From Escherichia coli (GTDB lineage Bacteria; Pseudomonadota; Gammaproteobacteria; Enterobacterales; Enterobacteriaceae), in NCBI RefSeq assembly GCF_016026235.1, contig NZ_CP065613.1: a DNA stretch of 64,000 nt; one strand, written 5' to 3'. This document shows, one piece after another, positions 53,010 through 57,159 of the stretch; within the stretch, counting starts at the first letter, position 1; the number at the start of each line of letters is the position of its first letter. The notes below the pieces were generated by a model. That model saw nothing but the letters and a program-made list of their open reading frames with translations. It was not told where the DNA came from and did no database searches. The translations under genes were made by a program, and so were the position numbers.

Positions 53010-54698
53010 TTATTCCCCCACCATTTCAGTATTCGCCGCACCTGGCGGCACCATCGGGTAAACTTTTTCTTCGGCATCAATGCGCACATGGATCAGCGCC
53101 GGGCCAGGGCGATTGATGATTTCCTGCAATGCAGCCTGCGGATCGGCTTCGTTATTCAAATCACAGGTTTCGAGGCCGAATCCGGCGGCAATCTGCATAA
53201 AGTTGATTTTGCCCGGATAGGTGGCGGCAAAAACGCCTTGCTCGTAGAACAGACTCTGTTGCTGATGCACCAGCCCCAGCGCTTCGTTGTTCATCAGAAT
53301 GATTTTGACATCCAGCTGATTTTCACTGGCGGTCGCCATCTCCTGAATATTCATCATCAGGCTGCCGTCGCCGGAGAAACACAACACTTTGCGATCCAGG
53401 TTCGCCAGCGCCGCGCCAATCGCCGCAGGCAGGCCAAAACCCATCGTGCCCAGCCCACCGGAGGTCAGCCACTGGCGTGGGCGATTGAGCGGATAAGCTT
53501 GCGCGGTCCACATCTGATGCTGACCCACATCGGTGGTGATAATCGCATTGTCATCGACACAGGCGGCAACGGCGTTGATCAGGCCGTAATGGCTTAATGG
53601 ATCGCACGCTTTCGGGATTGGACACGGGAATTCGCGCTGCAAATCCGCTACCAACTGGTGCCACTCTGCACGCGGTTGCGCTTCCACCTGCGGGATCAAT
53701 TGCGCCAGCACGTCATCAACATCAGCCTGAATCGCCACATGCGGCTGCTTGATTTTACCCAGCTCTGCGCGATCGATATCGACATGAATAATTTTGGCAT
53801 TCGGACAGAACTGCTCGGTTTTGCCAATCGCCCGGTCATCAAAACGCGCACCGAGCACTATCAACAAATCCGCCTCCTGCAAAATATAGTTGGTGCTGCG
53901 CACGCCGTGCATCCCCAGCATACCCAGCGACAACGGATGCGCTTTTGGCAACATGCCCAGCGCCATTAAAGTCATGGTGGTAGGCAGTTGCGCTTTCTCC
54001 GCCAGTTCACGCACCCGTGCGGGCGCATTGATCACACCGCCGCCCAGATAAAGCACCGGGCGTTTGGCAGCGTTAATCATCGCCGCTGCGTCACGAATGC
54101 TTTCTTCGCTAAAGGCGGGGGCGGCGGCTTTTTCTGCCATAGCGGGCTGTGTTTCAATCTCAAAAACTGCCGTTTGCACATCCTTAGGAATGTCTATCCA
54201 CACCGGGCCTGGGCGGCCTGATTGCGCAATGCGGAAGGCATCGCTCATGACCTGCGGGAGTTCTTCGATATGTCTGACCAGATAGTTGTGTTTGGTGATG
54301 GGGATAGAGATGCCGTAGGTGTCCACTTCCTGGAAGGCGTCGGTGCCGATCATCGAGGCGAGAACCTGACCGGTGATGCAAATCAGCGGGATGGAGTCCA
54401 GCCGCGCATCGGCAATGGCGGTCACCAGGTTAGTCGCACCCGGTCCGCTACAGGCCATACAGACCGCCGGTTTACCGTCGGTGCGCGCCATCCCCTGAGC
54501 GATAAATCCCGCGCCCTGTTCATGACGGGCCAGAATATGGCGGATTTGCGTGCTTTGGCTTAAGGCATCGTAAACAGGCAGGATAGAACCGCCCGGAATG
54601 CCCGTCACAATCTTAATGCCCTGCTGTTCCAGGAAATGAACGATAAATTCTGCGCCGGTAAAGCGCTTACGCGTCGATGTTGTGCCCGAACTTGCCAT
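53010..54698 (-). CDS. ilvB: acetolactate synthase I large subunit
   Basis: 562 aa MASSGTTSTRKRFTGAEFIVHFLEQQGIKIVTGIPGGSILPVYDAL..., ThDP-dependent enzyme. Confidence 0.95.
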   Translation of the reverse strand: MASSGTTSTRKRFTGAEFIVHFLEQQGIKIVTGIPGGSILPVYDALSQSTQIRHILARHEQGAGFIAQGMARTDGKPAVCMACSGPGATNLVTAIADARLDSIPLICITGQVLASMIGTDAFQEVDTYGISIPITKHNYLVRHIEELPQVMSDAFRIAQSGRPGPVWIDIPKDVQTAVFEIETQPAMAEKAAAPAFSEESIRDAAAMINAAKRPVLYLGGGVINAPARVRELAEKAQLPTTMTLMALGMLPKAHPLSLGMLGMHGVRSTNYILQEADLLIVLGARFDDRAIGKTEQFCPNAKIIHVDIDRAELGKIKQPHVAIQADVDDVLAQLIPQVEAQPRAEWHQLVADLQREFPCPIPKACDPLSHYGLINAVAACVDDNAIITTDVGQHQMWTAQAYPLNRPRQWLTSGGLGTMGFGLPAAIGAALANLDRKVLCFSGDGSLMMNIQEMATASENQLDVKIILMNNEALGLVHQQQSLFYEQGVFAATYPGKINFMQIAAGFGLETCDLNNEADPQAALQEIINRPGPALIHVRIDAEEKVYPMVPPGAANTEMVGE

Positions 54699-54742
54699 GC
54701 TCCAGTCCTTTTCTTCTGGGCCGACTTTCCGGGAGGTGCTTA

Positions 54743-54780
54743 AACGAAAAACCCCGCCCGGTTTGCGCCGGCGGGGTTTT
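54743..54780 (-). terminator. ilvB attenuator terminator
   Basis: Minus-strand AAAACCCCGCCGGCGCAAACCGGGCGGGGUUUUUCGUUU hairpin plus U-run between the ivbL leader and ilvB. Confidence 0.6.
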
Positions 54781-54803
54781 GGAATCGTGTGTTGTTCCAG
54801 TCC

Positions 54804-54902
54804 CTACGGCGCATTGCCGACGACCACCACCACACGCACGACGACCACTGCGGCGGATGGCGCAGTTGGTAGTAGTTTTGCGTTGAACATGGAAGTAGTC
54901 AT
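54804..54902 (-). CDS. ivbL: ilvB operon leader peptide
   Basis: Hand-translated 32-aa ORF MTTSMLNAKLLPTAPSAAVVVVRVVVVVGNAP with Val/Leu-rich regulatory codons. Confidence 0.85.
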   Translation of the reverse strand: MTTSMFNAKLLPTAPSAAVVVVRVVVVVGNAP

Positions 54903-55028
54903 TGGGGACCTTGTTGGTTTTGTGTTTAACAATATTTATACAAGCACAGCTTTACAGGGGAGACAATGGAAAATTTTTCAGCAAGGGAAAATTGAGGGGT
55001 TGATCACGTTTTGCACTGAATTGCAGGT

Positions 55029-55170
55029 AACAAAAAACCCCGCCGGAGCGAGGTTTCGTCAGCCGCCTGCGGCTGGTAACCGCAAAGCACACTGTATTAT
55101 GTCAACACTGAAAGTATACCTGTTCCGCGCAGAACGCGCAATTTCGGCACGAATTTTGACGTATTTAGTA
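55029..55170 (-). ncRNA. istR: IstR small RNA (antitoxin RNA of the tisB type I toxin system); boundaries approximate
   Basis: Minus-strand terminator at 55029-55058; the segment GCACACTGTATTATGTCAACA (55087-55107) is a near-identical direct repeat of 55345-55365 in the tisB leader, as needed for a divergently encoded RNA to pair with tisB mRNA. Confidence 0.45.
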
Positions 55171-55212
55171 CATAGTTGAGTATCGATCACAGTTTGCGTT
55201 TTGTCCAAAAAT

Positions 55213-55232
55213 TACTGTTTATTTATACAGTA
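55213..55232. promoter_or_regulatory. LexA operator controlling the tisAB/istR-2 promoters
   Basis: TACTGTTTATTTATACAGTA fits CTGT-N8-ACAG, with a TATAAT -10 box immediately downstream (55241-55246). Confidence 0.6.
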
Positions 55233-55466
55233 AACTTCTATAATATCACTGTACGCAATGTGTTATGCGGGGGCCGCATCGTTACCCGGCGCACTAAGTC
55301 CTGGCTGAAACGGGTGGTGCCGTCAGCGCCTTAACCCCGCGTGAGCACACTGTGTTATGTCAACAAGCACAACGTTTCTCCTTGAGATACCGCGTGCACA
55401 ACAGCTGGCAACAGGCAGCGGAAAGGTACGTCAGCTGGCAGTGCTCCTGAACCACAGGAGACGCGT

Positions 55467-55556
55467 ATGAGCCTGGTGGATATCGCCATTCTTATCCTCA
55501 AACTCATTGTTGCAGCACTGCAACTGCTTGATGCTGTTCTGAAATACCTGAAGTAA
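55467..55556 (+). CDS. tisB: type I toxin TisB (SOS-induced membrane peptide)
   Basis: Hand-translated 29-aa ORF MSLVDIAILILKLIVAALQLLDAVLKYLK. Confidence 0.85.
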   Translation: MSLVDIAILILKLIVAALQLLDAVLKYLK

Positions 55557-55575
55557 TTCAGATTCAAGTCGCACC

Positions 55576-55604
55576 AAAGGGGAGCGGGTAACCGCTCCCC
55601 TTTT
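55576..55604 (+). terminator. tisB rho-independent terminator
   Basis: AAAGGGGAGCGG-GTAA-CCGCTCCCCTTTT hairpin directly after the tisB stop. Confidence 0.5.
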
Positions 55605-55974
55605 ATATTTAGCGTGCGGGTTGGAGTTGGGGGCTTCTTCTACCAGCAGAATGTTTGCACCTGCGCTGCCTGTGCCCCTCACCCTAGCCCTCTCCCCAAA
55701 GGGGCGAGGGGACCGTCCCGTGCAATGTTTAGCTCATTTTCTGAAAGGGAACGGTGGTTTCCCCCTCGCCCTTTCAGGGAGAGGGTTACAGTTCGCACGT
55801 AATCCCTTCCGGCAACATTTATTGCCGCTTTTGTTTACATATTCTGCCGTTTTGCTTTTCGCCATTCCCGGCACATATCTGGCTAACATTCATCAATGTG
55901 ATAGATTCCTCTCCCGCATTTATGGGAATGCGTAGTGACTTATTCTAATTATTTTTATAAAAGCATCCGTGATA

Positions 55975-57159
55975 ATGAAAAGGCATAGAAACGTCAATTT
56001 GTTATTGATGTTGGTATTACTCGTGGCCGTCGGTCAGATGGCGCAAACCATTTATATTCCAGCTATTGCCGATATGGCGCGCGATCTCAACGTCCGTGAA
56101 GGGGCGGTGCAGAGCGTAATGGGCGCTTATCTGCTGACTTACGGTGTCTCGCAGCTGTTTTATGGCCCGATATCCGACCGCGTGGGTCGCCGACCAGTGA
56201 TCCTCGTCGGAATGTCCATTTTTATGCTGGCAACGCTGGTCGCGGTCACGACCTCCAGTTTGACGGTATTGATTGCCGCCAGCGCGATGCAGGGGATGGG
56301 CACCGGCGTTGGCGGCGTAATGGCGCGTACTTTGCCGCGTGATTTATATGAACGGACACAGTTGCGCCATGCTAACAGCCTGTTAAACATGGGGATTCTT
56401 GTTAGTCCGTTGCTCGCACCGCTAATCGGCGGTCTGCTGGATACGATGTGGAACTGGCGCGCCTGTTATCTCTTTTTGTTGGTTCTTTGTGCTGGTGTGA
56501 CCTTCAGTATGGCCCGCTGGATGCCGGAAACGCGTCCGGTCGATGCACCGCGCACGCGCCTGCTTACCAGTTATAAAACGCTTTTCGGTAACGGCGGTTT
56601 TAACTGTTATTTGCTGATGCTGATTGGCGGTCTGGCCGGGATTGCCGCCTTTGAAGCCTGCTCCGGCGTGCTGATGGGCGCGGTGTTAGGGCTGAGCAGT
56701 ATGACGGTCAGTATTTTGTTTATTCTGCCGATTCCGGCGGCATTTTTTGGGGCATGGTTTGCCGGGCGTCCTAATAAACGCTTCTCAACGTTGATGTGGC
56801 AGTCGGTTATCTGCTGCCTGCTGGCTGGCTTGCTGATGTGGATCCCCGACTGGTTTGGCGTGATGAATGTCTGGACGCTGCTTGTTCCCGCCGCGCTGTT
56901 CTTTTTCGGTGCCGGGATGCTGTTTCCGCTGGCGACCAGCGGCGCGATGGAGCCGTTCCCCTTCCTGGCGGGCACGGCTGGCGCGCTGGTCGGCGGTCTG
57001 CAAAACATTGGTTCCGGCGTACTGGCGTCGCTCTCAGCGATGTTGCCGCAAACCGGTCAGGGCAGCCTGGGGTTGTTGATGACCTTAATGGGATTGTTGA
57101 TCGTGCTGTGCTGGCTACCGCTGGCAACGCGGATGTCGCATCAGGGGCAGCCCGTTTAA
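55975..57159 (+). CDS. emrD: multidrug efflux MFS transporter EmrD
   Basis: 394 aa from MKRHRNVNLLLMLVLLVAVGQMAQTIYIPAIADMARDLNV... Confidence 0.9.
   Translation: MKRHRNVNLLLMLVLLVAVGQMAQTIYIPAIADMARDLNVREGAVQSVMGAYLLTYGVSQLFYGPISDRVGRRPVILVGMSIFMLATLVAVTTSSLTVLIAASAMQGMGTGVGGVMARTLPRDLYERTQLRHANSLLNMGILVSPLLAPLIGGLLDTMWNWRACYLFLLVLCAGVTFSMARWMPETRPVDAPRTRLLTSYKTLFGNGGFNCYLLMLIGGLAGIAAFEACSGVLMGAVLGLSSMTVSILFILPIPAAFFGAWFAGRPNKRFSTLMWQSVICCLLAGLLMWIPDWFGVMNVWTLLVPAALFFFGAGMLFPLATSGAMEPFPFLAGTAGALVGGLQNIGSGVLASLSAMLPQTGQGSLGLLMTLMGLLIVLCWLPLATRMSHQGQPV

Follow-up and report, generated by a model that had tools for sequence, protein, structure and literature searches.

The BoxC repeat of Escherichia coli (Bergler et al. 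1992) is the same element as the PIT, or potential intrastrand triplex, element (Hoyne et al. 2000; Hoyne and Maher 2002) and as TMECO, the intrastrand-triplex motif of E. coli (Holder et al. 2015) (PMC4666352). Strain K-12 contains 23 copies, all of them intergenic, which belong to two types, A with TTA and B with CCG as loop 2; five inverted pairs are found in K-12, each consisting of one type-A and one type-B copy (PMC4666352). The core is built of three blocks, CCCTC(T/G)CCC(C), a loop of 3 to 5 nt, (G)GGG(A/T)GAGGG, TTA or CCG, and GGGTGAGGG(G), and the G/C-rich motif has been found in over 260 genomes (PMC4666352). An oligonucleotide with the G-rich consensus forms an intrastrand triplex in vitro, as seen by CD and NMR, a structure that was detected neither in duplex DNA nor in vivo (PMC4666352). 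Earlier experiments with PIT elements found no promoter or terminator activity; RNA polymerase and reverse transcriptase were unaffected, and studies in vivo likewise revealed no effect, as reported in PMC4666352. According to the same paper, the genes that flank TMECO copies follow no functional pattern, and sequence variability around the motifs is raised (PMC4666352). In the literature searched, no later functional work on TMECO/PIT elements was found.

Here we report on a pair of inverted, GC-rich motifs between tisB and emrD in a 64-kb stretch of E. coli DNA (the window). Both arms are copies of this dispersed repeat, so that the repeat-family option among those raised by the original prediction is the one that stood. 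The pair is very probably two BoxC copies, one of type A and one of type B, inverted with their third blocks outward and without a dedicated local job. The element is already known, the family having been described in 1992 and the left copy being present in a published table.

Two inverted BoxC copies between tisB and emrD

As originally described, the pair is located between tisB (55467-55556, plus strand) and emrD (start at 55975, plus strand); gene coordinates are those of the PGAP annotation of FDAARGOS_943, which is 100% identical over 601 bp. The features of the region, in positions of the window, are as follows.

55032-55161, minus strand: istR (Rfam, 144.8 bits)
55576-55603, plus strand: intrinsic terminator of tisB, a 12-bp stem and then a T-run, with the repeat pair downstream
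55633-55801, no strand assigned: strain-variable segment of 169 bp that carries the pair (alignments, megablast counts, K-12 sequence)
55650-55724, minus strand: left arm, a complete BoxC/TMECO type-A unit with family flanks (family alignment)
55675-55710, minus strand: left 36-nt three-block core, CCCTCGCCCCTTTGGGGAGAGGGCTAGGGTGAGGGG (sequence; Table 1 of PMC4666352)
55710-55702, 55696-55688 and 55684-55676, minus strand: blocks 1, 2 and 3 of the left core
55725-55756, no strand assigned: spacer between the units, partly homologous to the spacers of other outward pairs
55757-55798, plus strand: right arm, BoxC unit of type B, truncated (from alignment with the consensus of that type)
55772-55776, plus strand: clustered substitutions at 55772, 55775 and 55776 (window allele versus common long allele)
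55810-55827, plus strand: second terminator-like hairpin, CGGCAACATTTATTGCCG and then CTTTTGTTT, between the repeat pair and emrD
55819-55893, minus strand: ysdE-like small ORF of 24 aa (annotated in other strains; translations)

The two motifs first noticed, AGCCCTCTCCCCAAAGGGGCGAGGGGA at 55686-55712 and CCCCCTCGCCCTTTCAGGGAGAGGGTT at 55761-55787, were found within 1 nt of where they had been placed, and their mutual reverse complementarity was borne out, with 23 of 27 positions of the arms 55685-55711 and 55762-55788 being complementary. A repeat search of the window recovered the same arms of 27 nt at 85% complementarity and 50 nt apart. The 24-nt core recurred on the opposite strand with 3 mismatches in a search of the window, and the relaxed pattern CCCTCTCCC-N(2-12)-GGGNGAGGG had two sites only within the 64 kb, which are the two arms. 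The searches for the core and for the relaxed pattern each returned 0 matches in 100 dinucleotide-preserving shuffles.

The left unit (55650-55724) is identical at 66 of 81 positions (81%) to the consensus of nine other type-A copies, and BLAST matches from other loci begin at about position 22 to 26 of the query, corresponding to 55649-55653 of the window. It contains the three-block core in the form designated "A mm", the commonest in K-12, with CTA in place of TTA as loop 2. The exact left 36-mer accounts for 14 entries in Supplementary Table S8 of PMC4666352, and the E24377A entry 4170381-4170416 of that table falls in the tisB-ysdE interval, so that the left-hand copy here had already been catalogued. 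Since K-12 lacks the element here, the locus is not among the 23 K-12 copies. By analogy with the described motif, the left copy could fold into a hairpin and, when the DNA is single stranded, could alternatively adopt an intrastrand triplex.

The right core, CCCTCGCCCTTTCAGGGAGAGGG (55763-55785), is that of K-12 TMECO no. 10 and is flanked by TTTCC on its 5' side and by the type-B 3' flank TTACAGTTCGCAC. The complete three-block core is absent from this arm: loop 2 and block 3 have been lost in a single 12-nt gap at about 55785/55786, between the GAGGG of block 2 and its direct repeat in block 3. When this one 12-nt gap is allowed, 42 of 49 aligned positions (86%) are identical to the type-B consensus; the gap was left unplaced by MAFFT (49% apparent identity) and was resolved by affine-gap pairwise alignment. 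Because loop 2 and block 3 are lost, the right arm can form a hairpin only, and neither a three-block motif nor a triplex. The right arm is thus a decayed and incomplete member of type B. With type-A flanks and core on the left and type-B flanks and core on the right, the two arms conform to the one-A-plus-one-B composition of inverted pairs. Alignment revealed the outward arrangement, together with a partly homologous spacer, also at rhaD-rhaA in another strain and at lldD-trmL in K-12.

A genome-wide search, which had been proposed at the outset, revealed the element to be multicopy rather than unique to the tisB-emrD interval. In BLAST searches, a 175-bp query (55628-55802) matched 13 places in the median E. 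coli genome, with a maximum of 26; nearly all of the places were chromosomal, with 31 of 68,318 being on plasmids. All of the copies that were inspected lie between unrelated genes, among them gldA-yijF, rhaD-rhaA, bacA-cca, hemH-adk, lldD-trmL, and others, and the unit form that they have in common is roughly CTGTTCCCCTCACCCTAACCCTCTCCCCnnnGGGGCGAGGGGACnGTnCG. Membership of the REP/BIME family was considered and rejected, the REP tail CTTATC(C/A)GGCCTAC having 0 matches in the window at up to one mismatch.

Folding, transcription, and neighboring genes

The original statement that each arm can also fold on itself was supported: each forms a 9/10-bp hairpin at -15 to -17 kcal/mol as RNA. For the region 55660-55805, one long hairpin is the preferred fold according to the folding tools, which consider Watson-Crick and G-U pairs only, with the following predicted energies.

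55660-55805, RNA, plus strand: -68.5 kcal/mol, z -5.0
55660-55805, RNA, minus strand: -71.3 kcal/mol, z -5.25
55660-55805, DNA, plus strand: -34.3 kcal/mol, z -4.5
55660-55805, RNA, local pairs only: about -48 kcal/mol

The pairing of the long hairpin follows from the construction of the element, because its arms are repeat copies.

It had been suggested that such hairpins are riboregulatory structures in the emrD leader or in the 3' region of tisB. The element begins after the tisB terminator at 55576-55603 and ends before the hairpin at 55810-55827, and it is therefore unlikely to be part of either the tisB mRNA or the emrD leader. Of the complete E. coli genomes, moreover, about 72% are without it and nevertheless keep tisB, ysdE, and emrD. 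A consensus scan found neither a terminator-like nor a promoter-like site on the element, and no T/U-run follows the arms, the next bases being TTACAGTTCGC on the plus strand and CTAGGGTGAGG on the minus strand. An intrinsic terminator was rejected on this basis, the test for a GC-rich hairpin directly followed by a U/T-run having failed on the element. A known RNA family was likewise rejected: at E ≤ 1 over 54500-56500, the only Rfam match on the element is to mir-1275 at chance level (19.7 bits versus a gathering threshold of 71; E = 0.78), in the same search that correctly found istR nearby at 144.8 bits. The PGAP annotation of the identical genome has no feature on the element, and mechanical ORFs of 62, 104, 39, and 51 aa that run across it are all unannotated there. 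Together with the experiments on PIT elements cited in PMC4666352, in which promoter and terminator activity were not found, these results argue against a riboregulatory structure. The pair belongs to an already described repeat class and shows no sign of a local function, and we infer that it is without a regulatory function.

Next to the pair is ysdE, a small ORF reported as translated. Its stop codon, at 55819, faces the repeat pair, so that on the minus strand ysdE comes first and the pair follows. The ORF is intact in the window; in FDAARGOS_943 it was not annotated by PGAP. The hairpin at 55810-55827 overlaps the last codons of ysdE on the opposite strand and is kept in all alleles, including the one that lacks tisB. 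The only promoter-like site found by consensus scan in 55300-56100 is on the minus strand (55975-55948), upstream of ysdE. Compared with K-12 and other long-form strains, the ysdE-like ORF of the window has 10 substitutions within 25 nt (55850-55874), and 5 of the 24 residues of its product are changed (MNVSQICAGNGEKQNGRICKQKRQ versus MNVSQIYARNGELFSGRICKQKRQ). This cluster could be either a recombination patch or a templated change.

Since the element lies directly downstream of ysdE and its predicted fold is very stable, it could enter an RNA and affect the 3' end or stability of that RNA. REP and BIME elements act as barriers or stabilizers at other 3' ends. A functional RNA element of this kind, serving as a 3'-end barrier, stabilizer, or insulator between convergent transcripts and acting on the ysdE mRNA (minus strand) or on tisB read-through (plus strand), would agree with the very stable hairpin predicted on both strands, with the position of the pair just beyond the ysdE stop codon, and with the location of the sole promoter-like site upstream of ysdE. 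In the genome paper of Enterobacter sp. 638, moreover, similar CCCTCTCCC..GGGAGAGGG palindromes were presumed to act in termination (PMC2869309). However, the hairpin has no U-tract after it on either strand, the terminator scan was empty on the element, ysdE and emrD are kept in the roughly 72% of E. coli genomes without it, and terminator activity was not found for PIT elements in the experiments cited in PMC4666352. The alleles, furthermore, differ by deletions and noncompensated changes rather than by covariation. We therefore consider an RNA element unlikely.

The original prediction had also named a protein binding site, an option for which nothing beyond sequence conservation was found. 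The idea that the arms are sites for a sequence- or structure-specific DNA-binding protein, whether nucleoid associated or regulatory, draws on the 9-nt blocks, which are strongly conserved among copies and across phyla. It is nonetheless a most improbable explanation, given that the flanking genes are functionally unrelated (PMC4666352), that most strains dispense with the element, and that the literature searched reports no binding protein.

Two further observations concern the neighborhood of the pair. The tisB terminator (55569-55603) resembles the left arm at 55688-55714, with a direct match of 16 of 20 positions (TCGCACCAAAGGGGAGCGGG versus TCTCCCCAAAGGGGCGAGGG), and 55698-55714 has 76% complementarity to the 3' half of the terminator; this is probably a chance similarity of GC-rich hairpins. 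In one long-form genome (L002, 90-380, plus strand; about 54889-55179 of the window), PGAP annotated a hypothetical protein of 96 aa, WP_000454297.1, whose ORF overlaps ivbL and istR on the opposite strand. The annotation is missing both from FDAARGOS_943 and from K-12 and is therefore probably spurious.

Alleles of the tisB-emrD intergenic site

At least five alleles were found at this locus. The long form, which carries the BoxC pair, is present in 1,494 to 1,508 of 5,426 complete E. coli genomes by megablast, and the approximately 72% without the element include K-12. In the short form, found in K-12 and most other strains, the segment is replaced by the 31-nt sequence GTCGGATGCGATGCTGACGCATCTTATCCGCCCTACC; in K-12 (NC_000913.3; L005, 1212-1250) the site corresponds to 55633-55801 of the window, and GTCGGATGCGATGCTGACGCATCTTATCCGCCCTACC is unannotated in the RefSeq record. 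This sequence is itself dispersed, being matched at 17 places in the median E. coli genome, and by the REP consensus we take it to be a degenerate REP. The comparison with the K-12 intergenic sequence that had been called for thus revealed the pair to be missing there and a degenerate REP to be in its place. Since the BoxC pair and the REP occupy the same position, two repeat families are present as alternative alleles.

Among long-form genomes, three sequence variants were encountered. The window allele, found in about 14 to 20 genomes, differs from the common long allele by the clustered substitutions at 55772, 55775, and 55776. In the common long allele, the right and left cores are exact reverse complements of each other, and the predicted DNA fold reaches -44 kcal/mol (z -8.1). 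The right core of the window matches the type-B cores of other loci, which suggests that the window allele is the older state; instead, the window allele, with its cluster of ten substitutions at 55850-55874, may be a recombined divergent haplotype.

In strain JNU (L015, NZ_CP083263.1, about 575-612), the long form has lost 75 bp between CCCTC sequences that are directly repeated in the two arms. The arms are thereby fused to one hairpin, which is still preceded by the third block of the left arm, and the fused sequence folds weakly as DNA (-13.2 kcal/mol, z -1.2). The partial deletion of inverted pairs that leaves a hairpin has been termed the "palindrome effect" (PMC4666352), and the JNU deletion matches it.

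In strain BCE049 (L004, NZ_CP042250.1, 1335-1505; about 54980-55805 of the window), the istR-tisB region is swapped for about 180 bp of unrelated sequence that ends in the REP-tail-like CCTTACCCTACC. Many E. coli genomes are without the whole istR-tisB toxin-antitoxin locus. The right junction of the tisB-less allele immediately precedes the CCGGCAACATTTATTGCCG hairpin, a position shared by the junctions of the BoxC and REP alleles. The hairpin at 55810-55827 is the right edge of every rearrangement that was seen.

Presence/absence polymorphism with sharp boundaries and inverted-repeat-like ends could also be expected of a MITE-like mobile element, in which the BoxC arms would be the terminal inverted repeats of the 169-bp segment and a transposase or recombinase would have inserted it recently. 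The family is, moreover, dispersed and multicopy, outward pairs of the form A-spacer-B elsewhere are homologous across the spacer, and the same core is present at high copy number in unrelated phyla. Against this, no target-site duplication was found at the junctions of the long segment in the two alignments checked, and the "empty" allele has 31 nt of REP-like sequence, unrelated to the segment, in its place, which makes the event a replacement and not a clean insertion; a MITE was rejected on these two grounds despite the inverted arms. Homology within the family starts from about 55650 and not from the segment edge at 55633, and single units and oppositely arranged pairs exist as well. Neither transposons nor phages nor plasmids are associated with the family (PMC4666352), and only the above-mentioned 31 of 68,318 places are on plasmids. 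Recent insertion of a mobile element is therefore very unlikely.

Under the preferred reading, the BoxC pair would be noncoding repeat DNA in a transcriptionally quiet gap that extends from the tisB terminator to the ysdE/emrD side, and its main effect would be on DNA. A hairpin, cruciform, or triplex-prone structure may cause replication slippage and template switching and may in this way make the locus hypervariable, and the third block of the right copy would have been lost by a slippage-type deletion of 12 nt. The two deletions between short direct repeats in the arms, the clustered three-base change that perfects the palindrome, and the replacement of a REP are what is expected of slippage and template switching at a hairpin-prone repeat. 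The variation at this site thus appears, as far as the allele sequences indicate, to be driven by structure. In PMC4666352, instability is linked to structure by correlation, and in vivo footprinting did not detect the triplex there.

Distant genomes and comparison with known systems

In a species-wide scan with the three-block pattern, the matches listed comprise about 120 stretches, all from three MAGs. The same three-block core is present in a MAG of Archangium sp. (L020-L084), a MAG of "Candidatus Contendobacter" (L017-L019), and the unclassified MAG GL140 (L085-L096). The Archangium MAG contains at least 67 copies of the core, mostly CCCTCTCCCTCGGGGAGAGGGTCAGGGTGAGGG, with nonconserved flanks. 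Among the matches listed for GL140, the core is embedded in longer repeats of two types, in which about 35 nt to either side of it are conserved. The presence of the core in these distant MAGs agrees with the statement in PMC4666352 that the motif occurs in more than 260 genomes.

Pure neutrality explains poorly the high copy number of the core in distant phyla. The BoxC core might instead be the recognition or structure element of a trans-acting system for mobilization, recombination, or repair, in which case the pair may alter the expression of ysdE, tisB, or emrD. This suggestion arises because a near-identical core of 33 to 36 nt with lineage-specific flanks is found at high copy number in distant phyla and because the pair here replaces a REP beside a toxin-antitoxin gene; we regard it as quite unlikely for this locus. 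Two BoxC copies without a dedicated local job remain the reading that we prefer.

The eye-catching GC-rich inverted repeat beside the persistence toxin gene tisB is thus a copy of a known family. BoxC is unannotated in RefSeq records, and its rediscovery will therefore recur. The locus is also a good illustration of repeat-driven variation at one intergenic site, where the alleles variously carry a REP, a BoxC palindrome that is intact or nearly perfect, a single hairpin that arose by fusion, or no tisB locus.

Several systems resemble the pair in part. Like REP and BIME elements, it is short, GC rich, hairpin forming, intergenic, multicopy, and strain variable, and its family often occurs as inverted pairs; in K-12-type strains, the very same position is taken by a REP. 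It differs in that the REP tail CTTATCCGGCCTAC is missing from the whole window. BoxC is also not known to have a RAYT-type mobilizing enzyme, an IHF site, or a gyrase site.

Quasipalindrome- or hairpin-associated mutagenesis proceeds by template switching and slippage at imperfect inverted repeats. The losses of 12 nt between GAGGG repeats and of 75 bp between CCCTC repeats, both inside the arms, resemble its products, as do the three clustered substitutions that perfect the complementarity of the arms. In contrast to this process, the window allele is possibly a recombined haplotype and neither the ancestor nor the product of a templated event.

MITEs such as ERIC/IRU in enterobacteria and Correia in Neisseria share with the element a length of about 100 to 170 bp, inverted-repeat ends, an intergenic multicopy distribution, and presence/absence polymorphism. 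They differ in having the target-site duplication, related transposase, and clean empty site that are lacking here, and the repeat unit of BoxC is a single arm of about 56 to 80 nt and not the whole pair.

The closest system is the BoxC family itself. The right arm departs from it by the loss of loop 2 and block 3, so that a search with the three-block pattern would miss this arm. In other respects the locus is typical of the family: the left three-block core is one loop base off, both arms have the extended flanks, and the site is intergenic. As in the BoxC pairs of K-12, in which outward and inward arrangements both occur, the two copies are an inverted A and B, and as at other BoxC loci, the site is hypervariable among strains.
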